Shown: positions 22,233 to 63,776 of the stretch, piece by piece | How the letters are laid out: the number at the start of each line of letters is the position of its first letter | How positions within the stretch are numbered: position 1 is the stretch's first letter | Origin: an uncultured Candidatus Saccharibacteria bacterium | GTDB taxonomy: Bacteria; Patescibacteriota; Minisyncoccia; Phycocordibacterales; CAIZLB01 | Reading direction: 5' to 3' | Assembly (NCBI GenBank): GCA_964550955.1 | Contig: CAZKAF010000001.1 | Location: 503,931 to 567,930, forward strand | DNA length: 64,000 nucleotides | Made by a program: the position numbers and the translations under genes | The notes under the pieces: model-generated | The model's input: the letters and a program-made list of their open reading frames with translations, nothing else | The model's database searches: none | What the model was told of the DNA's origin: nothing

Positions 22233-24137
22233 TCATCCTGCAGCCTGCAAAGTCTTGAGGATGTCCGCGATTCCGAACGTTGCCACGCCGGTCACGTAAT
22301 CCCCTCCGCCATAATAGATGCGGCACGCATTTTCTTTCACGACGATTCCGCACGGGAATACCACGCGGGAAACGACGCCGTTCAATTCATACTGAGTTTC
22401 GGGCTTGAAGATGGGCGCCGCGCTTCGGGCCTTCACGATGGTCGGATTTTTCAGATCGAGAAGGACGGCTCCGACGCTGTATACCCTCTCCGCCGAGACG
22501 CCATGATACAGAAGCAGCCAGCCTTCTTCCGTCTTGACGGGAGGCGTCGCCGCGCCTATCTTCCAGCCGTCCCACATGCCCCTTCTCGGCCCCATGACAT
22601 CGATGCATTTCGAGAGCGGCTGCGGATCGTCGAGCGACTCGATATAATCGGCGCAGATATGCTCGCCGATTCGATGAATGACCATGAATTTTCCATCAAT
22701 TTTATCTGGAAAAATGCAGGCATCCTTGTCGTCAATGGTATCCGGAGTAAGCGCGAATGGCTCTGACCAGGCATCGAACTTTCTTTTCAGGAAATCGGAA
22801 ACTGAAATGGAAGACATGACGACCCTCGGGACTTTCCCGTCATACCCCGTATATGTCATGTACAGGCGCTTGCCTATTTTCACCACTCTCGGATCCTCGG
22901 TTCCGTAGTTTGAGTCTTCGCCGGAAGCGGAAATTTCGAAATCAGCTCGCCCTCTGTAGACAGGCTCATCCAATCGCTCGTCAATGACGAAGCCGTCGGA
23001 CGAGACGGCCAAGCCGATGACGGAAACGTTCGACTTGGTAACCGCCCGATACAATATATAGGTATTCCCCTCAAGCTCGATGGCGGCAGGATTGAAGACC
23101 CCTCCTTCTTCCCACTCAAAGCCGGGACGAGGAGCAAGTATGGGATTCTTCGCATATCGCTTGACCAGGTGGCCGGGATTGACCAGCGCGTTCAGGAGCG
23201 GCTTCAGAGGGATGGAAGCGACGGCCGAATGCGTGTCCGAAGCGCCGTAGTACAGTTCGACTATATTTTTCCGAAGCAATGCCCCGGACGGAAAGACGAT
23301 ATTCGAAATCAGGCCGATTCTTTCATAGTGATCTTCGGGGACCATGAACGGACTGTCGGTTCTTGAAATGATCTGCAGGGGATTTTCAGAATCGAGAAGG
23401 AGCGCTTCGACACCGAAGACGGGCGCGTCGGTTCCGTATCCTTGGATATGAGAGTAAATGAGCAGCCAGCCGTCCTTCGTCTTCAGCGGCGCGGCGCCCA
23501 CTTCGACTTGATCATGCTCATGCCTTTGAATGTGCAGCTTGTGATCGTCGAGATGCGCATACCAGCTATCCCAATATTTTTTCGACCACATGTCCTCGAT
23601 CTTCTTGAAGCGCGCGATGCAGATATCCGAAGGCTTGCGATCCGTATTCACGGCGAGAATGGCCACGTACTCGCCGTTGATTTTCTCCGGAAAAAGGGTC
23701 ATGGCCTTCGCGTTGAACGGAGTGACCAGGTGCCGCTCGTCTATGTTTTTCAAATCGCGCGTGACGGCGACGGCAACCTTGATATTGTCCGCTGAAAAAG
23801 GAAACCCTCCCAGGGCCGTATAAAAAATGTAATGCACGCCGTCGATGGTCGTGGCTCGGGGATCCTCCAATCCGAACTTCTCATATTCTTTCTCCGGCGC
23901 GATGAGCACTCGCCTGTCTTCGAACGATCCTTTCCCGTCTTCCGTGGCGCAGCCGATGACGGACATGCGAAACGAAGGGCTGATCATGTGGTCGACGCCG
24001 GACATGGCGCGGTACAGAAGATTCAATTTCTTCTTGTGAATGACGGGCGACGGATTGAAAGTCGCGACCGATTCCCAGGGATGATTCTTTATCGGCGAAA
24101 GTATTGGATTTTTTGAAGAAGGAGTGACTGAGAACAT
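22233..24137 (-). CDS. Tandem double GH130-family (mannoside phosphorylase/beta-mannosidase-like) protein
   Basis: Two ~310-aa repeats, each with GH130-like motifs (EDPR...G..Y..YT, DGW.L.YH, YYGASD/YYGGGD). 5-bladed beta-propeller family. Confidence 0.75.
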   Translation of the reverse strand: MFSVTPSSKNPILSPIKNHPWESVATFNPSPVIHKKKLNLLYRAMSGVDHMISPSFRMSVIGCATEDGKGSFEDRRVLIAPEKEYEKFGLEDPRATTIDGVHYIFYTALGGFPFSADNIKVAVAVTRDLKNIDERHLVTPFNAKAMTLFPEKINGEYVAILAVNTDRKPSDICIARFKKIEDMWSKKYWDSWYAHLDDHKLHIQRHEHDQVEVGAAPLKTKDGWLLIYSHIQGYGTDAPVFGVEALLLDSENPLQIISRTDSPFMVPEDHYERIGLISNIVFPSGALLRKNIVELYYGASDTHSAVASIPLKPLLNALVNPGHLVKRYAKNPILAPRPGFEWEEGGVFNPAAIELEGNTYILYRAVTKSNVSVIGLAVSSDGFVIDERLDEPVYRGRADFEISASGEDSNYGTEDPRVVKIGKRLYMTYTGYDGKVPRVVMSSISVSDFLKRKFDAWSEPFALTPDTIDDKDACIFPDKIDGKFMVIHRIGEHICADYIESLDDPQPLSKCIDVMGPRRGMWDGWKIGAATPPVKTEEGWLLLYHGVSAERVYSVGAVLLDLKNPTIVKARSAAPIFKPETQYELNGVVSRVVFPCGIVVKENACRIYYGGGDYVTGVATFGIADILKTLQAAG

Positions 24138-24178
24138 GTGAATATTTGTGATGAATAATGCAAGCTACCGAAGGCGCG

Positions 24179-25381
24179 TCATGAGGAAGAGCCGCCCCTC
24201 CCGGTCACGGTGCTGTTTTCCCTAAGCCAGCTTAATAATTTTTCTATCGGCATGTGAGCGGCGCACACATGCTTGTCGCCTCCTCCGTAATACACGTGCA
24301 ATATGCCTTCCTGAAGCACGGCGCCGCAAACGTAGACCACCCCCGGCTTCGAATCGTTTTCATACCACATGTCCGGAGTCAGAACGGGGCGCGAGGACCG
24401 GGCAATCACCTTCTCGGGATTATCGAGATCAAGAAGCATCGCGCCGAGCTTGTATTTGTGAGACTCGGTCTTGTCAGTCGCATGGTAGAGCACAAGCCAG
24501 CCGTCCTCCGTCTTCACTGGCGGGGCGCCCACCCCTCTCGGCCACGTATCCCATTCCTCCCGCTCCTTCTTCGATCCGAAAACGCTCTGTATTTTCTTGA
24601 CTCCGCGGACAATGTCTTTCATGTCATCGACATAGTCCACCTGAATTTTCGGCGAAATGCTGTGCAAAATCGCAAATTTTCCCTGAATCTTTTCGGGGAA
24701 AATTACCCAATTCTTGTGTATCTCGTTTTTTGGCGAAATTAGCACGGGCTTGGACCATTTCCATTTCTGCTCCAGAAAATCTTTCTTTGAAATCGTCGTC
24801 AGGGCAATCCGTATGAAATCCCAGCCGTCGAAGGCGCTGAACGTCAGATAAAACCTGTCCTCGATAAGGACCATGCGCGGATCCTCGCACCCTCCCCAGC
24901 TTCCGCCTGACGGATACATGACCGGGTCATATTTCCTGGAATCATGATGCCCTTCTCGTTCTTTTTGATTCCCGGCTCTCTTCAGGCCCTCAAGATTCCG
25001 TTCCATCAGCCGAGGACTTTCCATGAAGAAGACGGGGTATGGCAATCTGTCAAAATCATGGCCGTTCTCGCTTGACGCGTATCCGAACCTCGAGACGCCG
25101 TCAGCGCCTATGGCCCTGTATATCAAGTGAACCGTTCCGTCCTCGTCGTGCCAGGCCGCCGGATTGAACGTGCCTCCGTATTCCCATTCATTCTCGATGG
25201 ACGGGCTTATGACAGGATTGCTGGCATGACGCCTTACGATTTCGGCATGACTCTGAGCGCCCGCAGTCGCGCGTCCCTTTCCGGCAGAACGAAAAAGCCC
25301 CGAGACGATGTATGAGACAAGCAGGAAAAATAGCGCGGCGGAAAGTATTAAGAATGCAAGATTATATATTTCAGATGCCAT
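24179..25381 (-). CDS. Membrane-anchored GH130-family glycoside phosphorylase/hydrolase
   Basis: N-terminal TM helix, then a GH130 domain (CEDPRMVLIEDRFYLTFSAFDG, DGWLVLYH, YYGGGD). Confidence 0.75.
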   Translation of the reverse strand: MASEIYNLAFLILSAALFFLLVSYIVSGLFRSAGKGRATAGAQSHAEIVRRHASNPVISPSIENEWEYGGTFNPAAWHDEDGTVHLIYRAIGADGVSRFGYASSENGHDFDRLPYPVFFMESPRLMERNLEGLKRAGNQKEREGHHDSRKYDPVMYPSGGSWGGCEDPRMVLIEDRFYLTFSAFDGWDFIRIALTTISKKDFLEQKWKWSKPVLISPKNEIHKNWVIFPEKIQGKFAILHSISPKIQVDYVDDMKDIVRGVKKIQSVFGSKKEREEWDTWPRGVGAPPVKTEDGWLVLYHATDKTESHKYKLGAMLLDLDNPEKVIARSSRPVLTPDMWYENDSKPGVVYVCGAVLQEGILHVYYGGGDKHVCAAHMPIEKLLSWLRENSTVTGRGGSSS

Positions 25382-25766
25382 GAGCGACGCTTGCGTTATT
25401 GCTGACGACCTCCCGACCGTACTGATCCTCCACCCTGATAATGTCCTGCTCGTCGAAGTCCCCGGTGGAAATTTCGAGAATCACGAGCGGCTCGTCTGTT
25501 GACTGGATCCGATGAGTCTTTCCGACGATGACCGAATGCCGCTCGCCCGGTTTTGCCTCGAAGACATCGTCTCCGATATGCAGAAAGCCTTCCCCGGAAA
25601 TGACAACCCAGAATTCGCTTCTATGATTGTGATACTGCAAGCTTGTCGACTGGCCGGGATTGACGGTGATGAGCTTTACCGTGGATTGAAGATTATGAGT
25701 AAACTGATCGAACGATCCCCAGGGCCGATCTTCGTGATATGCATTGAGTTCGGAAGAGTCTTTCAT
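25371..25766 (-). CDS. Cupin-type mannose-6-phosphate isomerase (type II PMI cupin domain, stand-alone)
   Basis: RPWGSF...GQSTSLQYHNHRSEFWVVISG...GERHSV...HRIQ...LVILEISTGDFDEQDIIRVEDQYGR matches the C-terminal PMI domain of ManC-type enzymes. Overlaps the downstream GH130 gene by 11 nt. Confidence 0.7.
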   Translation of the reverse strand: MKDSSELNAYHEDRPWGSFDQFTHNLQSTVKLITVNPGQSTSLQYHNHRSEFWVVISGEGFLHIGDDVFEAKPGERHSVIVGKTHRIQSTDEPLVILEISTGDFDEQDIIRVEDQYGREVVSNNASVAHGI

Positions 25767-32391: not shown

Positions 32392-33048
32392 TTAAAATTT
32401 ATCAAGCTGCCAGTTATTAAGATTATCGCGAAGAAGCACCGAATGGCTGCCGGAAGGAGTGTTCCACTTTACCCGTACGGTGACGACAAGTTCCCTGCGA
32501 ACAGCCTCCAAAAACGCATCGTCATCGGTGCCGCCCCCTGTTGCAGCGTACGGAGGTATGCTGAAGATGATTTCTCTGGTAAACCTCGAATAGGTAGGTC
32601 CCGCCCCCTCTCCATATGTAGCGTATCCTTGAACATTCTCCGGATCCCAATACTTCAAACGCCCGCAGACACCGCTTGGGCACATCTTGAGCGTGTACCC
32701 GCTCGAACTGCGTTCAAGATTCATCTTACGGCTTTCGCCCGACTCATTCAAATGCCACGCCCTCACTCCCGAGTATATCTTCGGCACGACGCCTGCAAGC
32801 CAGTCATCGGCAGCTTCCGGCGGATCCTTTAAAGCATTGTTGTCTCGCTGATTTCGCAAGTACTCTATGGCCTCTTGAGCAAGGTAAAAAGCGGTGACCT
32901 GGTCTCGCGCATAAAATGAATTTCGAAGAGCCTGAGAGATGATCGAGAGAGGACCGGTCAATGCGATGGCGAGTATGGAAATGGCGACCAGCGTCTCGAT
33001 GATCGTAAAGCCTTTTTTATGCGATGTTTCTTTATGTGTAAATTTCAT
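32392..33048 (-). CDS. Type IV minor pilin/pseudopilin
   Basis: Leader MKFTHKETSHKKG|FTIIETLVAISILAIAL, class III signal with Glu+5. ATG at 33048. Confidence 0.65.
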   Translation of the reverse strand: MKFTHKETSHKKGFTIIETLVAISILAIALTGPLSIISQALRNSFYARDQVTAFYLAQEAIEYLRNQRDNNALKDPPEAADDWLAGVVPKIYSGVRAWHLNESGESRKMNLERSSSGYTLKMCPSGVCGRLKYWDPENVQGYATYGEGAGPTYSRFTREIIFSIPPYAATGGGTDDDAFLEAVRRELVVTVRVKWNTPSGSHSVLLRDNLNNWQLDKF

Positions 33049-33068
33049 AATCGTTCTGCGTGATTTTG

Positions 33069-33737
33069 TCAATCGATTCCTATGTTAAGAATTCTCTGCG
33101 ATACGAAAGTTTGAAGCACGAAATCAGACTCCTTGGCATTAGGTCCCGCAGTTCCTGAAATCAAAATGAAAATGCTCGGCTGAACAGTCCCTCCCGGCGC
33201 AGGGCTATTCACATAAAATTTGGCCGATTTAATATTGACTTCAGGAGGAGTAATGTCCGTTTCAACCCACATATCCGCTTCAGGATCGAAATAAGTTTTG
33301 ACAATCCTTCCTGTGCGATTTATCGTCTGCGGCTCAAATCGATACTCCACCCCCAAAGGGCTGCCTGACAACACGGACACGAAGGCAACCACTGTCTGAG
33401 GGGCGCTTACGGCAGCTGCGCAGAGAATGTCATCGGAAGCAGGAATCTGGTAAAAATTAGAGGAAGGGTCTTCCATCTCCGAGAAATCGTAATTTCCCTC
33501 GCATCTGTAGAAATACCCCGTCTTCATGTCTCGGACCATGCTCTCAATTGCAAAGTTCAAATTATTAACCACCGCATTAATTGCCTGCGCCTTTCGATTC
33601 CCCCCAATGATGCTTAGCACGACGGATACCGCGACGAGCATGAATACGGAAAAAATCGCAACGGAGACGAGCATCTCTACCAATGTAAAGCCCGACTTGG
33701 CCTGGATATTTTTTTTGCTAAAGTGAAATCGCATCAT
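33069..33737 (-). CDS. Type IV minor pilin/pseudopilin
   Basis: Leader ...NIQAKSG|FTLVEMLVSVAIFSVFMLVAV. Confidence 0.65.
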   Translation of the reverse strand: MMRFHFSKKNIQAKSGFTLVEMLVSVAIFSVFMLVAVSVVLSIIGGNRKAQAINAVVNNLNFAIESMVRDMKTGYFYRCEGNYDFSEMEDPSSNFYQIPASDDILCAAAVSAPQTVVAFVSVLSGSPLGVEYRFEPQTINRTGRIVKTYFDPEADMWVETDITPPEVNIKSAKFYVNSPAPGGTVQPSIFILISGTAGPNAKESDFVLQTFVSQRILNIGID

Positions 33738-33751
33738 GTGAATCTATTATA

Positions 33752-34468
33752 TTACGAATTCGCGCAGAGAGTGCTGGATGAATCCACTATTCGAGTCTGA
33801 CCGGTCGGCTCAATGACGACAACCTTGCAATTCTCTCCATCGCCAGTATCAACCACGATGTACACCCGGTCTCCAGGGTATGGCGCCAAGGCATCGCTGC
33901 CCCCTCTTTTTGCATAGACCCGCGGGGCAGGATTCGGCCTTTTGAATACGACGTGAACCTCAGTGGCAACAAAATCAGGATTAGTTCCGCATGCGGGCTG
34001 GTAAGAACCCTCAAGCTTGCCGACGCAGATAGTTCGAATCCTGTTCGTTCTCTGATTCTGAAATATGTATTGGATTACCTCTTCGCCAGGCTCATATGTC
34101 GGCATGCTTGTCCCTGAAGACGTATTCGAATAGACAACGACTTGCCGGGGACTTGCAATGTTAAAATATGCACCGGCTTCGCTTTCGAAATTGCCGACAT
34201 CTCCAGCCGCCCGCACGCTGATGCCGTACAGCTGAGCCTCCCTGACTGCCAGCGCAATTTCATACGCCATATTTGTCAAAAGCGTATTGCTCGAGAGCTT
34301 TGCCTGATCGAACAGCGCGATGGAGCTGACAATGGTGAATATCGCGATTACGATGATCATCTCCGCCAGCGTGAAGCCCGCATTGACCAGCCTGCGCGTT
34401 TTTTTGACTGCCTTTCCTGCAGCATCCTGCACGCTTTTATAGAACGTTTTGCGCATGTTTAATTTCAT
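33752..34468 (-). CDS. Type IV minor pilin/pseudopilin
   Basis: Leader ...RRLVNAG|FTLAEMIIVIAIFTIVSSIAL. Overlaps the pilD stop by 4 nt. Confidence 0.6.
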   Translation of the reverse strand: MKLNMRKTFYKSVQDAAGKAVKKTRRLVNAGFTLAEMIIVIAIFTIVSSIALFDQAKLSSNTLLTNMAYEIALAVREAQLYGISVRAAGDVGNFESEAGAYFNIASPRQVVVYSNTSSGTSMPTYEPGEEVIQYIFQNQRTNRIRTICVGKLEGSYQPACGTNPDFVATEVHVVFKRPNPAPRVYAKRGGSDALAPYPGDRVYIVVDTGDGENCKVVVIEPTGQTRIVDSSSTLCANS

Positions 34469-35436
34469 AGAATATACTCGAGCGGCTCAAATATATTATA
34501 CCCAAAAAAGAAGACGATAAGAAGACCTGCTATGAGAAAAGGCGCGAACGGAATTTCGCTTTTCAGCGACAAGACCGGCACCTGGAAGCCCGTCGCGTAT
34601 TTTATGACACCCTTGATCTTGCGGAAAACCGATCTCATGCTCTTGAGCTTGTTCATGGACGTGGACGCACGGCCGAGAACGAGAAGAATGATGGAAACTG
34701 CCGCGCCTATCCAGAATCCGTAGATGATGGCGCTGGCCCCGGCCGACAAGCCAAGGAACCATCCGATGCCGAGGGACAATTTTGCATCTCCCAACCCCAT
34801 CCAGCGGCCGTCCGATACCAGCCAAAGTATGTAGAACGGGAAAGCCAGGATAAGGCCCGATGAGAGCGACAGCAGGGTCGGGATCACGAGCCTGATCTGG
34901 CCCGAGCCGTCGAAACCGAGAAACAGCGTGACGAGCGCAAGAGCGGCAAACGTATATGAAAACAAATCCGGAATTATCTTATGCCTCATGTCATAGACGG
35001 TAATGAGGACAAGGAACGCCATGATGACGCATGTGTAGAAAGTCTGAATCAGAAACTGGACCGGATACGCGAGAGCCGTCGGCGCGAAAACCAGGTACGT
35101 TCCCAGAAACAGAAAGGCGGTCAATAATTCTACGGCAGGATACTGAAGGGAGATTTCGCTTTTGCATGTCCGGCACCTTCCCCTGAAGGCGACATAGCTC
35201 AGCACGGGAATGAGGTCAATGGCGCTCAGATGCCTCTTGCATGAGAAGCACTGCGACCTTCCCATCAGGCCCTTGCCGGTATTGTATCGATACAGCACTA
35301 CGTTCAAGAAGCTTCCGATGATGGCGCCGAGCCCGAGAAAAAAAATGCTGAGTACAATATTCACGCATATATCATATCTTAGTTTATTGCCAGAGCAAAG
35401 GATGCGCGTGCGTTCAAGAGACGGCCTCGGCGCCAA
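34465..35436 (-). CDS. pilD: Prepilin peptidase (A24 family)
   Basis: N-terminal GLGAIIGSFLNVV, Zn-binding CxxC...CxxC (CFSCKRH...CRTCKSE), and multiple TM helices with the catalytic-Asp regions. ORF-track start is TTG at 35436; a GTG at ~35364 (VNIVLSIFFLGLG) fits family N-termini better. Confidence 0.85.
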   Translation of the reverse strand: MAPRPSLERTRILCSGNKLRYDICVNIVLSIFFLGLGAIIGSFLNVVLYRYNTGKGLMGRSQCFSCKRHLSAIDLIPVLSYVAFRGRCRTCKSEISLQYPAVELLTAFLFLGTYLVFAPTALAYPVQFLIQTFYTCVIMAFLVLITVYDMRHKIIPDLFSYTFAALALVTLFLGFDGSGQIRLVIPTLLSLSSGLILAFPFYILWLVSDGRWMGLGDAKLSLGIGWFLGLSAGASAIIYGFWIGAAVSIILLVLGRASTSMNKLKSMRSVFRKIKGVIKYATGFQVPVLSLKSEIPFAPFLIAGLLIVFFFGYNIFEPLEYIL

Positions 35437-35468: not shown

Positions 35469-35561
35469 CCCGCCAAACTCTTAAGAGGCAATACAAAACC
35501 CGCCTTTTTGGGGCGGGTTCTTGGGTTTTGGGGAAACTGAAAATTTAGACTAGTTGCAAAC
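35469..35561. repeat. 93-nt direct repeat, copy 1 (pilin 3' flank including terminator)
   Basis: Identical to 36152-36244. Confidence 0.85.
35495..35520 (-). terminator. Terminator after pilA (inside the duplicated 93-nt 3' flank)
   Basis: Minus strand reads AACCCGCCCC-AAAAA-GGCGGGTT followed by TTGTATTG. Confidence 0.6.
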
Positions 35562-35987
35562 AGCTCCCGTAAGAGTCGAAGAAGCTGACTTTCCAGTACT
35601 ATCTACACAGTATGTTGTTCCGCCAAACGCCGCTGCAACCGCCCATGTCGTCTCAGTCACGCTACAAGTTACCGATGTTGTCTTACCGTAAACGCTAGTG
35701 ATAAGCGCACCTAATCCATTCGCGCCTCCGAGTACGTTAGTTGTCTGACCTGTTGTACAAGCTGTGCCTGTTCCTGCAACTACGTCAGAACCGCTGGCCT
35801 TATATTTGTTAGCTGCACTGTAGTAAAGCTCAGCCTGCGCTCGCATGTTCGAGAGCTCGTTCTGGACCGCCGCCGCCGTTCCCCTGGACCGAGCCGTCGT
35901 GAGGGACGCGAGCACTACTGATGATAGGATACCGATGATGGCGATTACCACCAAGAGTTCGATGAGTGTGAAACCTCGAGTTTTCAT
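35550..35987 (-). CDS. pilA: Type IVa major pilin
   Basis: MKTRG|FTLIELLVVIAIIGILSSVVLASL, a canonical class III signal with a 5-aa leader and Glu+5. C-terminal Cys pair. ATG at 35987; ORF-track TTG at 36041 is less likely. Confidence 0.8.
   Translation of the reverse strand: MKTRGFTLIELLVVIAIIGILSSVVLASLTTARSRGTAAAVQNELSNMRAQAELYYSAANKYKASGSDVVAGTGTACTTGQTTNVLGGANGLGALITSVYGKTTSVTCSVTETTWAVAAAFGGTTYCVDSTGKSASSTLTGAVCN
35835..35972. repeat. 138-nt direct repeat, copy 1 (conserved N-terminal pilin coding block)
   Basis: 100% identical to 36488-36625. Divergence starts exactly 5' of the LIELLVV codons. Confidence 0.85.
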
Positions 35988-36151
35988 AATCGAATTGATT
36001 GAATTAAATGTAAATTGAATACCTGTTAAATTTTTCTTCAAAAGTCACGCAAACGCGACCTTGTATTCCTGATCTTCGACAGACCAAAAACGTGCCTTTA
36101 TTATACCAACTTATACAAAGGTAAAGATACCCTTGACCTGTGGATAGATTT

Positions 36152-36244
36152 CCCGCCAAACTCTTAAGAGGCAATACAAAACCCGCCTTTTTGGGGCGGG
36201 TTCTTGGGTTTTGGGGAAACTGAAAATTTAGACTAGTTGCAAAC
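36152..36244. repeat. 93-nt direct repeat, copy 2 (3' flank of silent pilin cassette)
   Basis: Identical to 35469-35561. Contains the same terminator hairpin (36178-36202). Confidence 0.85.
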
Positions 36245-36652
36245 TCCGCCTGTGACAGCGATAGTCGTTGTGCTTTTCTTAGACACCCCCTTGCTATCCA
36301 CGCAGAAGTAATCTGATCCTGCTGACGCAGTAACTGCCCAAGCCTGAGCCGGTGTTCCTGAAGCCACGCAAGTTGGAGTTATGCTTTTAGCTGCAATACC
36401 ATCAAGAAGCGGCTTGAGCCCGTTTGCTGATGTGAAAAGAGTGCCAGTTGAACAGTCTCCGGCAGTTCCATAACTTCCCGTTGTACTGTAGAACAATTCA
36501 GCCTGCGCTCGCATGTTCGAGAGCTCGTTCTGGACCGCCGCCGCCGTTCCCCTGGACCGAGCCGTCGTGAGGGACGCGAGCACTACTGATGATAGGATAC
36601 CGATGATGGCGATTACCACCAAGAGTTCGATGAGCGCGCCGGCCGCCTGAAG
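36233..36652 (-). pseudogene. Leaderless/promoterless pilin paralog (silent pilin cassette)
   Basis: Conserved N-terminal mature-pilin block is identical to pilA, but there is no Met, no KRG|F leader and no class III cleavage site. Upstream in-frame sequence is TAG(pilC stop)-LQAAGALIELLVV. C-terminal half diverges from pilA. Confidence 0.6.
36488..36625. repeat. 138-nt direct repeat, copy 2
   Basis: 100% identical to 35835-35972. Confidence 0.85.
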
Positions 36653-37861
36653 CTAGATTCCCGAAGAGATGTTATAGATAGGAATGAGAACTGACGCGAG
36701 AAGGAAGCCTACGCCGAGGCCGAGCATCACGATCATGACCGGCTCGATGAGGTCGACGAGCGTGTCTACCGCGTTCATCACTTCTCGCTGATAGAATTTC
36801 GCCAGCGTTTTCAGGATGCTTCCGAGCTCGCCCGTTTCCTCGCCCACGCGAATCATCTGCACGAGAATGCCCGGTATTTCCGGATACTTTCCTACCGCGT
36901 CGGAAAGCGCGCTGCCCGTCTTTACCGCGTCGAGCGATTCGCGCATGATTCCCTCGTATACCTTGTTATCGACGACATTGGCAGTGAGCTCAAGCGCCTT
37001 TACCATCGGAATGCCGCTGGCAAGCATGGTGTTCAGGTTGTCCGCAATTCGGGACAGGTATAATTTTCTGTACAGGTCGCCGATGTATGGAACATCAAGC
37101 CGAACGCGCGATGACGCGTCCTTGCCCGCATCGGTCTGCAGGAATCTGAACAGGAAGAATATGCCCACGATAATGAGCACTATCAGGAACGGCCCGAAGT
37201 TGACCAGGATGTCGCTGAGCGCGATTACGAATTTCGTATAAATAGGAACCTCCTGCCCCGATTCGGTGATGATGCTGCTGATCTTCGGAATGACCACCGT
37301 GAGCATCAATGACATTACGGCAATGAACGTGAAGACCACGAATGCCGGATAAATGAGGGCGTTCTTCACTTTCGAGTTCACTTCGTATGATCGGTCGAGA
37401 TAGTCGGCAAGGAAGTTGAACGTCTCGTCGAGCTTTCCGGACTCCTCGCCCGCCTTGACCATGTTCACGTAAAATGTCGAGAAGACTTTCGGATGCTTGG
37501 AAAGCGCGTTCGAGATGCTCGAGCCGCCCTGAATGTCTTCCGAAATCTCAAAGAGATTCTTCCTGAGAGTCTTGTTCTCCGCCTCGGCCGAGAGCAGCTT
37601 GAAGATACGGAGCGCGGACACCTGCGCGGTGAACAGCGTCGCCATCTGCCGCGACAGGATCACGACATCCTTGTTCTTTACGCCGCTGAAGATGCTAATC
37701 TCTTTCCCGAGAAGGCCTCCTGCCTCCTCCGCCGGCTTGATGGAAGTGATGACGAAGCCGCGTCGCTGAAGCGAGCTGATCGCAATGTCAATAGTGACCG
37801 CATCGATCGATCCTTCCGTTTCGGCCCCTGATTGGTTTATTGCTTTGTATTTAAATAGCAT
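36653..37861 (-). CDS. pilC: Type IV pilus inner-membrane platform protein (GspF family)
   Basis: Two GspF-like repeats with conserved cytoplasmic domains and 3 TM helices. 402 aa. Confidence 0.9.
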   Translation of the reverse strand: MLFKYKAINQSGAETEGSIDAVTIDIAISSLQRRGFVITSIKPAEEAGGLLGKEISIFSGVKNKDVVILSRQMATLFTAQVSALRIFKLLSAEAENKTLRKNLFEISEDIQGGSSISNALSKHPKVFSTFYVNMVKAGEESGKLDETFNFLADYLDRSYEVNSKVKNALIYPAFVVFTFIAVMSLMLTVVIPKISSIITESGQEVPIYTKFVIALSDILVNFGPFLIVLIIVGIFFLFRFLQTDAGKDASSRVRLDVPYIGDLYRKLYLSRIADNLNTMLASGIPMVKALELTANVVDNKVYEGIMRESLDAVKTGSALSDAVGKYPEIPGILVQMIRVGEETGELGSILKTLAKFYQREVMNAVDTLVDLIEPVMIVMLGLGVGFLLASVLIPIYNISSGI

Positions 37862-37953: not shown

Positions 37954-39015
37954 TTAAATCAGACGCTCGAGAATCTGCGGATTCAGCGAATGCTGATACG
38001 CGCTTTCGATGGTGATTTCCCCTCTCCGGACAAGATCCGCCAGGCACCGGTTCAGGTCGATCATGCCGTCCTGCGAGCCGGTCTCGATGACCGTGTTGAT
38101 TTCATGGCTTCTCTTCTCCCTAATCAGGTTCGCCACGGCCGCGTTCGCCACAAGAAGCTCGTACGCGGGAATCATTCCGCCTGAAATTCGGGGAATGAGC
38201 CGCTGAGAGAAGATGCCCGAAAGCGACGCCGCGAGCTGAACTCGGATCTGGTCCTGCTGGCCGGCCGGGAACGTGTCGATGATTCGGTCGATGGTCTGCG
38301 CGGCATTGTTCGTATGGAGCGTCGAGAATACCATGTGGCCGGTTTCTGCAGCCGTAACGGCCGCAGCCATCGTCTCATGGCCTCTCATCTCCCCAAGCAG
38401 GATCACGTTGACGTCCTGCCGAAGCACCGAGACGAGAGCGTCTTCGAAGCTGTCGGTATCAACTCCTACTTCCCGCTGGTCGATGACGGACTTCTTCTGG
38501 TCGTACACGTACTCGACCGGATCCTCGATCGTGATGATATGCTCCGCCCGTTCCTGATTGATCAGCTCGATCATCGAAGCGAGCGTCGTGGACTTTCCTT
38601 GACCCACCGGACCTACCACGAGAAAGAATCCCTGCTTCTTTCGGGCGAACGTCTCGAGCATCGGAGGAAGGCCGAGTTCAGACAGCGTCTTGATCTGCTT
38701 CGGAATAAGCCTGAGCGCGATGCTGAAATAGCCTTGCTGAATATACGCATTGCCTCGAAAGCGGGCAGTTTCTCCGAACCGATACGAGAAGTCGTATTCC
38801 TTCTTTTCGATGAACTTCATCATCTTCTCCTTTCCGATCATGACTTCGAGAACTCCGAGAATCGCGTCGTGGCTCAGGATGTCCTTCTTTACGAGAGGAA
38901 GTAGCGAGCTGTTCGTGCGGATCATCGGATGCCTGCCTTCGGACAAGTGAAGATCCGACGCGCCTTCTCGCACCACTATCGAAAGCAGATCCCCTAGTTC
39001 ATCGTTGTAATTCAT
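37954..39015 (-). CDS. pilT: Twitching-motility retraction ATPase
   Basis: Walker A GPVGQGKSTT, Asp box, Walker B, His box, and AIRNLIRE-like motif (AVANLIREKR). 353 aa. Confidence 0.9.
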   Translation of the reverse strand: MNYNDELGDLLSIVVREGASDLHLSEGRHPMIRTNSSLLPLVKKDILSHDAILGVLEVMIGKEKMMKFIEKKEYDFSYRFGETARFRGNAYIQQGYFSIALRLIPKQIKTLSELGLPPMLETFARKKQGFFLVVGPVGQGKSTTLASMIELINQERAEHIITIEDPVEYVYDQKKSVIDQREVGVDTDSFEDALVSVLRQDVNVILLGEMRGHETMAAAVTAAETGHMVFSTLHTNNAAQTIDRIIDTFPAGQQDQIRVQLAASLSGIFSQRLIPRISGGMIPAYELLVANAAVANLIREKRSHEINTVIETGSQDGMIDLNRCLADLVRRGEITIESAYQHSLNPQILERLI

Positions 39016-39018
39016 ATC

Positions 39019-39417
39019 TTATAGTTTCTTTTTGTTATTTAGCATCCTGAGAACTTCCGTCACTACCTCCGACGGAATGGTCGTCGCTTTCACGATGTAC
39101 CCGTCGATTCCCAGCCGCTTTGCCTTGTCGATGTCGGACGATTGGCCCTGGTTGCTCAGGATGAGCACGACCGCGTCGTCGGCCAGCTTCTTGTCCCGGA
39201 TATTCTTGAGGGCCTCAAGACCGTCCATGACCGGCATGACGATGTCGAGAACGATGGCGTCCGGAACGAACCCCTCTTCGAGCCTCTTCAGCGCCTCGGA
39301 ACCGTCGCTCGCGGTCGTTACCGCGAACTTTTCCTTTTGGAACTTGATTGAATACATGTTCAAAAGGAACTTGTCATCGTCAACTATCAGTATTTTGTAT
39401 GGAATGTCTCCGTTCAT
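39019..39417 (-). CDS. Single-domain response regulator (CheY/PilH-like receiver)
   Basis: KILIVDDD, phospho-acceptor Asp in LDIVMPVMDG, conserved T/S and K (DGYIVK). No output domain and no cognate kinase in the window. Confidence 0.8.
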   Translation of the reverse strand: MNGDIPYKILIVDDDKFLLNMYSIKFQKEKFAVTTASDGSEALKRLEEGFVPDAIVLDIVMPVMDGLEALKNIRDKKLADDAVVLILSNQGQSSDIDKAKRLGIDGYIVKATTIPSEVVTEVLRMLNNKKKL

Positions 39418-39465: not shown

Positions 39466-41190
39466 TTACACAGTGCTCACTTCCTCGAACGGTATCTTCT
39501 TCGTAAGCGATTTGATGATCGCGTCCTCCTTGAGCGTAGTGAATCCTTTCTTCCTGAGGACGTCGTAGATGGCAGGCTCGCTGGCGTCCTTGAGAATCAG
39601 CCGCTCGAGCTCCTTGTCCATCTCGAAGACCTCGAATACGGCCTGCCGCCCCTTGGTGCCCTTCGGGCAGTCAGGCGTCGGCGATATTTCATACACTTCC
39701 GCAATGGGCGGAAGCTCCTTCTTGTACTGTTCCGGCAGGTCTTCGAATTCCTTGTCGATCATTACCTTGATGCTGTCTTCCACCGGAACGGGCTTGACTG
39801 CGGGATCGTAGGCCTTCCCCACCAGTCGCTGCGCCATGCCGAGAACGAGCGTCGGAGCGATAAGGAAAGGATCGATTCCCATGTCGATAAGTCGGGGGAC
39901 GATGCCGATGGAGCTGTTGGTGTGAATCGTGGAGAATACCAAGTGACCGGTAAGCGCGGCCTGGATGGCAAGCTGCGCGGTTTCCTTGTCTCGGATCTCT
40001 CCCACCATGATGATGTCGGGGTCCTGTCGGAGCGTCGTTCGGAGACCGGACGCGAACGTGTATCCGATTTCGGGCCGGACTTGCGACTGGCTGATGCCCT
40101 CGATGTTGTATTCCACCGGATCTTCAAGCGAGAGCACGTTCTGCGTTTCCCTGTCGAGCGCCGTAAGCATCGAGTAAAGAGTCGTGGTCTTACCTGAGCC
40201 TGTCGGACCGGAAATGAGAATGAGGCCGTACGGCCTGTTGATGGCCTTGCGGATCATCTCGTAATGGCGGGCCGAAAAGCCGAGCTCTTCGAGCTTCTGC
40301 ACGCCTTTCTGCTGGTCTAAGATTCGCATCACCACCTTCTCTCCGAAGTATGTCGGGAACGTGGAGACTCGGAAGTCGATCTTCCTGTTGTCGATGCGCG
40401 CCGAGAATCGGCCGTCCTGGGGCTTTCGCTTCTCGTCGAGCTTCATGTTGCAAAGGACCTTGATTCGCGCGACGACGGCATCAAGAACCTTTATGGGAAG
40501 GACGAGGCTGGTATTGAGAACGCCGTCCACTCGAAACCTGATGCGCACCTTGTCCCGAAGCGGCTCGATGTGAATGTCGGACGCCTCGCCTTCGATGGCG
40601 TACCGAAGCGTCGTGGCCACGATCTTTGTTACCGGAGCGTCTTCCACGATGTTCACCTTGCCGCTCGCGTCGGGCTTGCCGACCATGTCATCCTGGCTCA
40701 CTTCGACTTTTCCGGCTCCGGCGAATTCGCTTTCGAGGTCGCCCAGCGCCTTGCTTACCTCCCCGGTCAATCCCTTGTACCAGTCAATCACCTTCTGAAA
40801 ATCGTCCTCGGAAACGACGAATATCTTGAAAGGCATGTTCACCTTGGCGGAAATGAAGTTCAGGGCATCCCGCGCCTCGATATTGTCCGGGTCTACTACG
40901 CCCACTTCCAGCGCGCCGTCCTTTATCTGTATGGGAATGATCTTGTAATGAACGGCGGATTCTTCGGGAATGTATTTTAAAATTTCGAACGGAATTTCCT
41001 TGTCGCCGATTTCCTTTCTCGGAATATGAAGAAGCTCGCTCTTCGCATGCGCGATTTGAGCGGCCGTAATGCCCCTTTCCCTCAGGATGTCCTCGACGGG
41101 CTTTCCGCTTTCCTGGGCTTCGGTCTGAATGAACGCCATGTCATCCTGCGATATGATATTTTCCTTTACAAGTACGCTTAAAAAATTCAT
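39466..41190 (-). CDS. pilB: Type IV pilus assembly ATPase (GspE family)
   Basis: N-terminal GSPII domains, Walker A SGPTGSGKTTT, Asp/His boxes, and a tetracysteine-like region replaced by CPKGTKG. 574 aa. Confidence 0.9.
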   Translation of the reverse strand: MNFLSVLVKENIISQDDMAFIQTEAQESGKPVEDILRERGITAAQIAHAKSELLHIPRKEIGDKEIPFEILKYIPEESAVHYKIIPIQIKDGALEVGVVDPDNIEARDALNFISAKVNMPFKIFVVSEDDFQKVIDWYKGLTGEVSKALGDLESEFAGAGKVEVSQDDMVGKPDASGKVNIVEDAPVTKIVATTLRYAIEGEASDIHIEPLRDKVRIRFRVDGVLNTSLVLPIKVLDAVVARIKVLCNMKLDEKRKPQDGRFSARIDNRKIDFRVSTFPTYFGEKVVMRILDQQKGVQKLEELGFSARHYEMIRKAINRPYGLILISGPTGSGKTTTLYSMLTALDRETQNVLSLEDPVEYNIEGISQSQVRPEIGYTFASGLRTTLRQDPDIIMVGEIRDKETAQLAIQAALTGHLVFSTIHTNSSIGIVPRLIDMGIDPFLIAPTLVLGMAQRLVGKAYDPAVKPVPVEDSIKVMIDKEFEDLPEQYKKELPPIAEVYEISPTPDCPKGTKGRQAVFEVFEMDKELERLILKDASEPAIYDVLRKKGFTTLKEDAIIKSLTKKIPFEEVSTV

Positions 41191-51160: not shown

Positions 51161-51249
51161 GGAGGCGTGGATGAGTGGTTTAAATCAACGGTTTACTAAA
51201 CCGTCGTTCCCTAACAGGAACCGTGGGTTCGAATCCCACTGCCTCCGCA
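51161..51249 (+). tRNA. Class II (Ser-type, G73) tRNA with apparent anticodon ACT
   Basis: GGAGGCG...ACGGT-TTACTAA-ACCGT, long variable arm GTTCC-CTAACA-GGAAC, T-arm GTGGGTTCGAATCCCAC, acceptor TGCCTCC, G73, CA. Anticodon reading needs tRNAscan-SE/ARAGORN confirmation. Confidence 0.6.
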
Positions 51250-61030: not shown

Positions 61031-61513
61031 ATGCTTAGAAATTCTCTCATAAGCCTGATTCTCAAGATCGGGCTGTCAATTTCCCTCTTATACGCCAGCC
61101 TCGCCTCATTCGTCGTGCCGGCGCTCGTGGTGGAAAAATGGCCTAACTTCATCTCTCAAAACCTGAGCGAGGTGTTTCTTTCGACTCTCACGGGCCTCAT
61201 GGCGCTTTTCTACATCGTCTGGCTTTTTTCCCGCAAATACCGATTCACGGCTACGGCAAGCCTTTCGGTCATCATCGTGCTTTTCGCGCTCTCGAACGTT
61301 CGGCAAGTCCCCCTTCTCTTCGACCTCGGGCCGCTCCTTGCCATCTCGGCAGCGCTGTCGCTCAGATACTATCCTCGGGTGAGGGTCGTCACGCAGACGA
61401 AAGTAAGCACGCTCTCGCATGACGGAACTCATGATCACGTGAAGGACAGGAACGGAAGCAGGACGGCGAACGAGAAAGATCATGACCAACACCTTTTTAT
61501 CCCGACCAATTAA
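61031..61513 (+). CDS. Hypothetical membrane protein
   Basis: 4 TM helices and a His/Asp-rich tail. Overlaps the recG start by 32 nt. Confidence 0.4.
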   Translation: MLRNSLISLILKIGLSISLLYASLASFVVPALVVEKWPNFISQNLSEVFLSTLTGLMALFYIVWLFSRKYRFTATASLSVIIVLFALSNVRQVPLLFDLGPLLAISAALSLRYYPRVRVVTQTKVSTLSHDGTHDHVKDRNGSRTANEKDHDQHLFIPTN

Positions 61514-63776
61514 ATCCCAGTTTCGGCTTCAGGATTCGCAGCTCAAGGCGCTGGGCGCTCTCGGCATCAGGACAATCAGGGACCTTCTCTACCATTTTCC
61601 AAAAAGATACGACAACATAACGTCCTCGAAGCTCATCGTCGACCTGGAAGCCGGCGAGCAAGTTACCGTCTACGGGAGAATCAAGGGCCTGAAAACCGGA
61701 AAATCATTTCGCGGAAAAATGCCGAAAGCCGAGGGAACGGTTTTCGACGAGACGGCATCGGTCAAGGTCCTGTGGTTTCACCAGCCGTACATCGCCAAGA
61801 TCATCCAAAACGACAGCCTCGTGAAGCTTCACGGAAAGGTCAGCGAACGGAACGGGACGCTGAGCATGCTCAACCCCGAGATAGAAACGGTAAGCAGCGT
61901 GCCGGGAACCATAGGCAACAATCTTTTCAGCACGGCGGACGAGCAGTCCGAAACGGGCGCGATGATTCCCGTATATGCCGAAAGCAAGGGCATCACCTCG
62001 CGCTGGATATTTCACGCGCTCCTCAAGGTATTTTCAAATGAAGAATTTCAGAAAATCGCCGACCCGGTGCCTGAAGAAATCCGAGCCAGATACAGCCTTC
62101 CCTCCCTGAATACGGCATTCATCTGGATGCATAACCCGAAAAAGGAGTCCGACTCGGTCGTGGCGCGAAAGCGATTCGCCTTTGAGGAAATTTTTTTCAT
62201 ACAGCTCAAGAATGAGCAGCAGCGGGCGCTCCACGCTCGGGAAAAGGCGTTCATCATAGACGCCAAGAATTCCGGAAGCGAAAGCGGCGATGCCGGGAGC
62301 AAGAAAATCGTCGAGGAGTTCACGTCGAGATTCCCTTTTCCCCTTACGGAGTCCCAGCACAAGTCCATCGACGACGTTCTCGCTGATTTTACGAAAGGAC
62401 ATCCGATGTCCCGGCTTCTTGAAGGCGACGTGGGCTCCGGCAAGACGGCAGTCGCCGCATCGACCGCGTACGCAGTAGTGACCTCGAGGCCGAAAGGACA
62501 GAATTTCGGAACGCTCCAGGTCGCATACATGGCACCGACCGAAATACTCGCAAAGCAGCATTTCGAATCCTTCATCCAATACTTCAGGCACATGCCCATT
62601 TCCATCGGGCTCATTACCGGAAACGGCTGCAGGAAGTTTCCTTCCAAGCTGAATCCGGGCGGATGGACGGACATATCAAGGCCTCAGTTTCAAAAATGGG
62701 TGGCGAACGGCGAGATAGCCATCGTCATCGGCACGCATGCGCTCATACAGAAGTCCGTGGCGTTCAAGCATCTCGCATACGTGATTATCGACGAGCAGCA
62801 TAGGTTCGGAACGGCGCAGCGGCAGAAGCTTACGAAGAAGCAGGTTCAGATGCCGCATCTGCTTTCGATGACCGCCACTCCCATTCCCAGGACCCTCGCG
62901 CTGACGCTTTACGGAGACCTGGACCTTTCGCTTCTCGACCAGATGCCGATCGGAAGAAAGAAAGTCATTACCGAAATCGTCATGCCGGCGCAGCGGGACG
63001 GAACGTACGAGAAGATTCGGAGCGAATTGCAAGCGGGACGGCAGGCATATGTCATCTGCCCGCGCATCGAGGAACCGGATCCTGACAAGCAGCAGACGCT
63101 GATGGCGAAGTCGGTGAAATCGGAAGCGAAGCGCCTGCAGAAAGACGTGTTCCCCGAATGCAGGATAGACATCATGCACAGCAAGATGAAGCCTGCCGAG
63201 AAGGACAGGATAATGGACAGGTTCACGAGGCATGAAATAGACATCCTGGTCTCGACGTCGGTGATCGAGGTGGGCGTGAACGTGCCGAATGCGTCCGTCA
63301 TCGTGATCGAAGGCGGCGAGCGCTTCGGGCTGTCGCAGCTCCACCAGCTGCGAGGACGAGTCATACGAGGAAATCATCAGCCGTACTGCTACGTATTTAC
63401 CAGCGAAAGCGGCAAGTCAGCCGGAGGCTCAAGGAAAACCGGCTCGCTGACAAGTGGCACGCCGGCAAAATCCGCGGCTTCGAAACAGAGCGACAAGACT
63501 GTCGACCGGCTGAAGGCGCTTGTCACGGCGAAGAACGGGTTCGAGCTTTCGGAATTGGACATGGCGCAGCGAGGCGCCGGAGAATTGTACGGAAACAAGC
63601 AATGGGGCATCTCCGACCTGGCGATGGAAGCCATCAAGAATATAAAAATGGTCGAGGCGGCCCGAAAGGAAGCGAAGGCCATCATCGAATCCTGTCCGAC
63701 TGAGTCGGAAATTGCCGCGGCGTATCCCCTTCTCTCAGAAGCCATCCTGGCAAAGAAGGACGTGCATTTTGAATAG
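61482..63776 (+). CDS. recG: ATP-dependent DNA helicase RecG
   Basis: Wedge/OB N-domain, SF2 motifs (GDVGSGKT, DEQHRFG, SMTATPIPRTL, QLRGRV) and a C-terminal TRG-like region. 764 aa. Confidence 0.9.
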   Translation: MTNTFLSRPIKSQFRLQDSQLKALGALGIRTIRDLLYHFPKRYDNITSSKLIVDLEAGEQVTVYGRIKGLKTGKSFRGKMPKAEGTVFDETASVKVLWFHQPYIAKIIQNDSLVKLHGKVSERNGTLSMLNPEIETVSSVPGTIGNNLFSTADEQSETGAMIPVYAESKGITSRWIFHALLKVFSNEEFQKIADPVPEEIRARYSLPSLNTAFIWMHNPKKESDSVVARKRFAFEEIFFIQLKNEQQRALHAREKAFIIDAKNSGSESGDAGSKKIVEEFTSRFPFPLTESQHKSIDDVLADFTKGHPMSRLLEGDVGSGKTAVAASTAYAVVTSRPKGQNFGTLQVAYMAPTEILAKQHFESFIQYFRHMPISIGLITGNGCRKFPSKLNPGGWTDISRPQFQKWVANGEIAIVIGTHALIQKSVAFKHLAYVIIDEQHRFGTAQRQKLTKKQVQMPHLLSMTATPIPRTLALTLYGDLDLSLLDQMPIGRKKVITEIVMPAQRDGTYEKIRSELQAGRQAYVICPRIEEPDPDKQQTLMAKSVKSEAKRLQKDVFPECRIDIMHSKMKPAEKDRIMDRFTRHEIDILVSTSVIEVGVNVPNASVIVIEGGERFGLSQLHQLRGRVIRGNHQPYCYVFTSESGKSAGGSRKTGSLTSGTPAKSAASKQSDKTVDRLKALVTAKNGFELSELDMAQRGAGELYGNKQWGISDLAMEAIKNIKMVEAARKEAKAIIESCPTESEIAAAYPLLSEAILAKKDVHFE

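Follow-up and report, generated by a model that had tools for sequence, protein, structure and literature searches.

Antigenic variation of the type IV pilin in Neisseria proceeds by unidirectional gene conversion from non-expressed pilS cassettes, and the expressed gene, pilE, carries a 66-bp Sma/Cla repeat at its 3' end and a G-quadruplex (G4) sequence upstream (PMC4023411). In class II meningococci, the pilS cassettes apparently do not serve as donors (PMC4023411). Among Candidate Phyla Radiation (CPR) bacteria, type IV pili of the Saccharibacteria TM7x have been implicated in host binding and twitching motility (PMC11623550); tandem genes, duplication or recombination of pilins did not come up when that paper was searched by term, and literature searches yielded no account of CPR bacteria with silent pilin cassettes or with gene conversion of pilins. 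Here we analyse a type IV pilus locus within a 64,000-nucleotide stretch of DNA (the window) from an uncultured bacterium deposited as Candidatus Saccharibacteria (contig CAZKAF010000001.1, positions 503,931 to 567,930), in which the complete major pilin gene pilA is preceded by a second, partial pilin copy, here called copy B, that lies immediately after pilC. An earlier note on this DNA had drawn attention to the pair and likened it to pilE/pilS variation. In our reading, copy B is probably a pilin paralogue that has recently lost its 5' end, stems from the tandem arrays usual in this clade and can recombine with pilA, its flanks having been kept identical to those of pilA by the intragenomic recombination found clade-wide.

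The locus lies entirely on the minus strand, in the order pilB, response regulator, pilT, pilC, copy B, pilA, pilD and three minor pilins. The region from pilC to the end of pilA is composed as follows:

36653-37861, minus: pilC, T2SSF platform protein of 402 aa (Pfam T2SSF, E = 2.5e-56), TAG stop at 36653-36655
36635-36652, minus: unique junction of 18 nt, CTTCAGGCGGCCGGCGCG, reading LQAAGA, from the pilC stop to copy B
36233-36634, minus: copy B, 5'-truncated pilin paralogue, beginning at the mature-pilin Leu3 codon and ending with TAG at 36233-36235
36498-36634, minus: shared block R1 on the copy B side, 137 nt, encoding LIELLVVIAIIGILSSVVLASLTTARSRGTAAAVQNELSNMRAQA(E), 100% identical to 35830-35966
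36245-36497, minus: V_B, variable segment of copy B, 253 nt, G+C content at third codon positions (GC3) 0.41
36152-36244, minus: shared block R2 on the copy B side, 93 nt, 100% identical to 35469-35561, terminator hairpin at 36180-36202
36193-36216, plus: G4-type motif GGGGCGGGTTCTTGGGTTTTGGGG in the copy-B-side R2, antisense to the pilins
35988-36146, minus: pilA control region, with a TATCCACA box, an extended -10 and a 5' untranslated region (UTR), from an alignment of 10 loci
35550-35987, minus: pilA, complete major prepilin of 145 aa, MKTRG↓FTLIELLVV... (Pfam N_methyl PF07963, E = 1.1e-8)
35830-35966, minus: R1 on the pilA side, 137 nt, GC3 0.76
35562-35829, minus: V_A, variable segment of pilA, 268 nt, GC3 0.36
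35469-35561, minus: R2 on the pilA side, 93 nt, terminator hairpin at 35497-35519 and G4 motif at 35510-35533 (plus strand)

For comparison, 83 related loci (L002-L084) were collected, 80 of them anchored on PilC (60-89% identity) and 3 found with a degenerate R1 probe.

The two pilin copies have two exact blocks in common, R1 and R2. Identity across R1 begins exactly at the Leu3 codon (CTC), which in copy B is separated from the pilC stop by the 18 unique nucleotides of the junction. R2 opens with the last three codons (VCN) and the TAG stop, continues with the terminator hairpin AACCCGCC-CCAAAAA-GGCGGGTT and, on the copy B side, stops 5 nt short of the TATCCACA box in the pilA promoter region. 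Between these blocks, V_A and V_B were identical at 144 positions over 293 aligned columns (~49% in DNA, 37% in protein), being as divergent as pilins of different genera; the longest run common to both was 9 nt, which is chance level, and no internal conserved islands were detected. The description in the earlier note holds for the positions of pilA and of the end of copy B, for the 93-nt 3' block with its terminator, for the differing central parts and for an identity that stops exactly 5' of the LIELLVV codons. Its 5' block is indeed 100% identical, but measures 137 nt and not 138, and the coordinates assigned to it (35835-35972 and 36488-36625) were off by 5-10 nt. The further promoterless cassettes that it had envisaged did not appear: a 32-nt R1 probe occurred twice in the window (0 expected), and a 32-mer search with 3 mismatches, tblastn and blastn with word size 7 revealed no other cassette there. 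Likewise, among the 120 matches listed for each protein search, none was a further close pilin encoded on the 696-kb source contig, which carries exact PilA (P0001) and exact PilC. Inversion-type switching was also considered and rejected, there being no meaningful inverted repeats around the locus.

Judged by its reading frame, copy B is unable to make a pilin and is silent as a protein. Immediately after the pilC stop it reads, in frame, TAG-LQAAGA-LIELLVV, and from the Leu3 codon the frame stays open for 133 codons. It has no ATG start, MKTRG leader, Phe1-Thr2, G↓F cleavage site or promoter of its own, no ATG occurs ahead of residue 48, and no Pfam match was obtained, to N_methyl or to any other family. 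The lack of a Met, a class III leader and a promoter, already asserted from the sequence, was thus borne out by the reading frame, by Pfam and by the alignment of the control block with those of relatives. Missing are the start codon, the leader and the cleavage site of a prepilin; the helix from Leu3 onwards and the globular part are intact. All columns that are invariant in an alignment of five pilins are kept, including three of the four Cys of copy B, the Trp and the CVD motif, and its fourth Cys position is common to pilA and L003, the closest relative. By the same tests, pilA has the basic leader, G↓F site, N_methyl match and four Cys aligned with those of relatives that characterise a type IVa major prepilin. 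The PilD substrate motif occurs in pilA and is missing from copy B. Copy B was not among the called proteins of its source genome in a collection of 5.8 billion, and neither an expressed copy B allele nor a close relative of it was found in that collection, the best match being 73% identical. No source was found for the junction: it shows homology neither with the pilin leader nor with the spacers that follow pilC in relatives. With no terminator ahead of it, copy B presumably forms the last part of the pilC transcript, as 3' untranslated sequence that the R2 terminator brings to an end.

The position of the pilA control region supports seeing copy B as an insert. In L003, L002, L004, L007 and other loci, the stretch after pilC consists of a short spacer (sometimes with a terminator), a TATCCACA box, a TATAAT -10, a 5' UTR stem-loop and the prepilin. 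In the window, the same control block stands after copy B and R2 instead of directly after pilC, so that copy B and R2 together look like ~520 bp inserted between pilC and the pilA promoter. The pilA elements themselves comprise the TATCCACA box at 36139-36146, the extended -10 TGGTATAAT at 36100-36108 and a 5' UTR of ~105 nt. The box was invariant in all ten aligned loci (the window, L002-L007, L010, L065 and L083), ~33 nt upstream of the -10, and is probably a binding site for a regulator of the major pilin promoter; it resembles the DnaA-box consensus TTATCCACA. Near the 5' end of the UTR (35988 to ~36093), a stem-loop, UUUUGGUCU-GUCGAA-GAUCAAAA (36066-36090, minus strand), was kept in 8-10 related loci according to a consensus fold, with stem changes that are wobble or one-sided and none compensatory. 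Neither the pilA 5' UTR nor R2 could be assigned to an Rfam family, only sub-threshold matches being obtained, and pilA is without an obvious Shine-Dalgarno sequence.

In the 83 related Paceibacterota loci, pilC turned out to be usually followed by an array of 2-5 complete pilin genes. Exact blocks of at least 50 nt were present in 23% of 74 adjacent pilin pairs from the same locus vs 0.08% of 2554 pairs from different loci, and blocks of at least 100 nt in 7% of the former vs 0% of the latter. These within-genome identical blocks measured 50-274 nt (e.g. L035, L044, L046, L056, L058, L076, L082 and L084) and mostly cover the leader and the N-terminus. The window pair belongs to the same class of arrangement, with two pilin units between pilC and pilD that have exact blocks of 137 and 93 nt in common. 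The N-terminal protein sequence of the pilins hardly varies within the clade, and an identity at synonymous sites that is confined to pilins of one genome therefore cannot come from protein-level selection; it requires gene conversion inside the genome or a very recent duplication. The difference between 23% and 0.08% thus points to clade-wide gene conversion among Paceibacterota pilin paralogues. Moreover, in L058 two complete pilins match each other at their two ends and differ in the middle, like the pair in the window, and such a mosaic between expressed pilins means that no silent cassette is needed for the pattern to arise.

What sets the window apart from these arrays is the missing leader. 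With a G/A-F-T/S leader pattern, no leaderless pilin was found among ~190 pilin open reading frames (ORFs) of the 83 related loci, and the leaderless copy is unique to the present genome among the 84 loci examined. Cassettes lacking the N-terminus were not found in relatives either: the orphan tblastn matches were PilD false positives, minor pilins or pilins missed by the pattern, and all were leader-bearing, except for a non-canonical pilin-like family in L064 and L069. The proteins of that family, encoded right after pilC (L064 2860-3360 and L069 6205-6723), are pilin-like in their C-terminal part and have an N-terminal hydrophobic helix without the G↓F-T-L-x-E motif or Glu5. The degenerate R1 probe, applied to metagenome contigs of the JGI, returned only the more distant relatives L082-L084, all with complete tandem pilins, and a search of the same contigs with R2 as query gave no match to DNA of the same species.

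Base composition indicates that the shared and variable parts have had different histories. GC3 was 0.68-0.73 in pilB, pilT, pilC and pilD and 0.76 in R1, against 0.36 in V_A and 0.41 in V_B, and the drop falls exactly at the border between R1 and V. In 131 pilins of relatives, GC3 was higher in the N-terminal part than in the rest by 0.07 +/- 0.09, with a maximum of 0.28, so that the two window copies, with gaps of 0.35-0.38, are the most extreme of 133 pilins. In L003 the whole pilin has a GC3 of 0.42 vs 0.67 for pilC, and R1 is only 86% identical in DNA to its counterpart there, the encoded protein being the same. From the GC3 contrast and this 86% identity it follows that R1 evolved differently from the V segments. 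Its history would fit repeated conversion, possibly GC-biased, or replacement of V by recombination at the R1/V border, and the drop itself could mean either that conversion of R1 has been GC-biased or that the V segments are of foreign origin. V_A and V_B are each 40-49% identical to the variable regions of relatives, copy B with fewer alignment gaps, which does not settle the matter: neither segment is clearly native.

Taken together, these results are best accommodated if copy B is a former member of a tandem array. It may have originated by duplication of a whole pilA unit, followed by loss of the spacer, promoter and leader from the first copy, or by insertion of a leaderless pilin fragment. 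The perfect flanks would then be due to intragenomic gene conversion of the kind that appears to homogenise the 5' blocks of complete tandem pilins in relatives, and the divergent, low-GC3 middles would have a different history from the native-looking R1. Once in place, the layout would permit several rearrangements. Conversion through R1 and R2 could bring V_B into the expression site, and an unequal crossover between the two R1 or the two R2 copies could either delete the promoter and leader, leaving a non-piliated cell, or place V_B behind a second promoter-leader unit. Such outcomes are possibilities of an accidental architecture and not evidence for a dedicated, selected variation system. 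Three observations weigh against this account. First, the frame of copy B is fully open and its conserved residues are kept, unlike those of an old pseudogene, so either the truncation is recent or the sequence has been maintained. Second, the G4 motif in both R2 copies and the RecG gene encoded in the window (61443-63776) fit a recombination-based system. Third, the order of events behind the layout cannot be reconstructed, the 18-nt junction having no identifiable source.

The most serious competitor is a working system of the pilE/pilS type, in which copy B would be a maintained silent donor whose V_B is copied non-reciprocally into pilA via R1 and R2. Conversion may then start at the predicted G4 in R2, and the pilus surface would change, with effects on host attachment or phage escape, for instance. 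We regard such a system as unlikely, although the likeness that the earlier note had seen is real as far as anatomy goes: one promoter-driven prepilin adjoins an intact copy that is directly upstream and has neither promoter, leader nor start, with identical flanks around a divergent middle. Copy B has the makings of an unexpressible donor, lacking a promoter, a start and its 5' end. With 137 and 93 nt, its flanks are of sufficient length for homologous recombination, R2 is placed like the 66-bp Sma/Cla repeat of Neisseria (PMC4023411), to which it is analogous and not homologous, and the intragenomic recombination of pilins that it would require is widespread in the clade. The upstream G4-type motif lies ~205 nt before the pilA ATG and RecG is at hand, as said above. 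The idea of a functioning variation system, in contrast, is not supported by the data. A single cassette was found, where Neisseria has several: in the window the R1 probe occurs twice, and nothing besides V_A and V_B is V-like. Recombinant or alternative pilin alleles were found neither in the 5.8 billion proteins nor in the JGI metagenome contigs, the layout occurs in none of the 83 relatives, and the V segments offer no internal islands that would allow partial exchange. Moreover, silent cassettes without a donor role are known from class II pilE meningococci (PMC4023411).

The putative G4 motif, present in both R2 copies, is one lead. In pilE/pilS variation, the G4-forming sequence next to the expression locus goes with an sRNA promoter. 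Four G4-type motifs occur on both strands of the window, two of them being the R2 copies, and local shuffles lead one to expect 2.2; the motif overlaps the GC-rich stem of the terminator and does not recur near the pilins of relatives. Two related loci have G4-type motifs in the spacer between pilC and the first pilin (L040 6293-6318 and L078 6353-6387), and the relatives as a whole hold only 7 such motifs in 823 kb, too few for an association.

We consider it improbable, more so than a pilE/pilS-like system, that the tandem is an artefact, in which two strains, one with a normal pilA and the other with a deletion or another allele, have been threaded into a false pair. Such an error could be suspected of a metagenome-derived contig with repeats of 93-137 nt, longer than short-read k-mers, and indeed the Logan contigs break at these repeats and none of them spans the whole locus. 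The places where they break, however, speak for a true repeat. A contig from SRR16797977 has the identical junction of pilC, TAG, 18 nt and R1 and stops 29 nt into R1, which places this junction in reads independently of the NCBI assembly. In SRR16797976, SRR16797977 and SRR16797981 alike, the contigs that encode an identical PilD have their start exactly 30 nt ahead of where R2 ends, and R2 has two right-hand continuations in each of the three runs. Since Logan contigs derive from an assembly graph with k = 31, a break k-1 bases into a repeat is expected where that repeat has two contexts, and breaks at this distance into R1 or R2 therefore mean that both contexts are present in the reads, in up to three runs, and that the duplication is not a mis-join. 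In addition, since R2 opens with pilin codons and runs to within 5 nt of the promoter box, every assembly would have to place the 3' end of a pilin upstream of the pilA promoter. Nor could the two junctions both be obtained from a simple two-allele bubble. The tandem arrangement is thus confirmed as real.

The least probable explanation is that copy B is translated. Read-through of the TAG would join it to PilC in a fusion, or re-initiation after the pilC stop, for which TTG and GTG (codons 11-12) are the sole in-frame candidates, would yield a leaderless, membrane-anchored pilin-like protein. An intact frame separated from pilC by a TAG alone would permit it, and the missing Shine-Dalgarno sequence does not exclude initiation, as pilA has no obvious one either. 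Against it, TAG is a genuine and common stop, closing 17 of the 45 long ORFs in the window; the six tRNAs found there include no suppressor; PilC stops at the C-terminus conserved in relatives; a MVVIAII... product would have no leader, G↓F site or Glu5 and, with positive charges after the helix, would by the positive-inside rule take an inverted pilin topology; and the architecture is seen in 0 of 83 relatives. Stop-codon reassignment or read-through was rejected on the strength of the TAG and tRNA counts within the window; a check for read-through or a suppressor tRNA had been proposed in the earlier note. A truncated or extended PilC was rejected as well, its native end, ...IPIYNISSGI, matching that of relatives (L002 and L003). 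Copy B is in frame with pilC and set off by nothing but a TAG, as had been noticed, and this position is best read as a one-in-three coincidence, given the native PilC terminus, the ordinary stop and the absence of a suppressor tRNA in the window.

The remaining genes of the pilus locus, all assigned by Pfam unless stated, are:

39466-41190, minus: pilB
39019-39417, minus: response regulator, without Pfam support of its own (PF00072 called in a collinear Logan contig)
37954-39015, minus: pilT
34465-35364, minus: pilD, prepilin peptidase of 299 aa with a GTG start (A24_N_bact and Peptidase_A24)
32392-34468, minus: three minor pilins

The collinear Logan contig additionally encodes pilM and a weak pilO match upstream. 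The closest homologues carry the names Paceibacterota, Parcubacteria or Patescibacteria, and the operon is read here as that of a Paceibacterota bacterium. Elsewhere in the window, two neighbouring genes of GH130, the beta-1,4-mannooligosaccharide phosphorylase family, were found at 22233-25480 (minus strand); carbohydrate enzymes of this kind are uncommon in reduced CPR genomes. ARAGORN also predicted a tRNA-Ser with anticodon ACT, unusual for bacteria, at 51161-51248 (plus strand), near two further tRNA-Ser genes (GCT and GGA).

The locus matters as the only one of 84 in which a pilin paralogue has turned silent and yet is able to recombine, and it is present in three public read sets (SRR16797976, SRR16797977 and SRR16797981). 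Type IV pili are thought to mediate the attachment of CPR bacteria to their hosts, and DNA uptake as well; the pili of TM7x give a functional reason why variation of the pilin surface could matter. There is a small chance that Paceibacterota diversify their major pilin by frequent segmental conversion among tandem units and that this locus is the first silent-cassette system of the pilE/pilS kind in CPR bacteria. Such a system would consist of a leaderless donor, a shared 3' repeat with a G-quadruplex motif and a single expression site, and with it an obligate episymbiont could switch its pilus surface, for host range or phage escape, without having two expressed pilins. A copy B that donates sequence would make the locus a minimal counterpart, of independent origin, to pilin variation in gonococci; otherwise copy B would be a recent pseudogene that documents the gain and loss of members of a pilin array.

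Set beside the class I pilE-pilS arrangement of Neisseria, the window is alike in having one expressed pilin with a non-expressed partial copy directly upstream, a shared 3' repeat where Neisseria has Sma/Cla, a G4-type motif upstream of the expression locus and direct repeats that could delete the expression signals and give rise to non-piliated cells. It differs in its single cassette, against several to many, in a copy B that retains the coding region of the conserved N-terminal helix, whereas pilS copies lack the 5' coding region, in a variable part without interspersed conserved mini-blocks and in a putative G4 that lies inside a terminator repeat on the antisense strand. Its elements have no sequence homology to those of Neisseria, the locus belongs to a CPR bacterium and not to a mucosal pathogen, and no recombinant variants were found in the collections. 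With the pilS cassettes of class II pilE N. meningitidis it shares silent cassettes without evidence of donation to the expressed gene; those cassettes, however, lie at a separate locus and do not match the type of the pilE variable region, whereas the cassette described here adjoins the expressed gene and has exact flanks in common with it (PMC4023411). TM7x has a comparable CPR machinery with major and minor pilins, in a different CPR class (PMC11623550). The tandem pilins of the relatives (L002-L084) differ in that each copy has its own Met, leader and G/A-F-T/S motif, of which copy B, abutting pilC, has none. They are alike in the operon, which runs through pilB, response regulator, pilT, pilC, pilins, pilD and minor pilins, in the N-terminal sequence, FTLIELLVVIAIIGILSSVVLASL, and in that paralogues of one genome often agree perfectly in their 5' blocks, in some cases in 3' blocks too, while their middles diverge.

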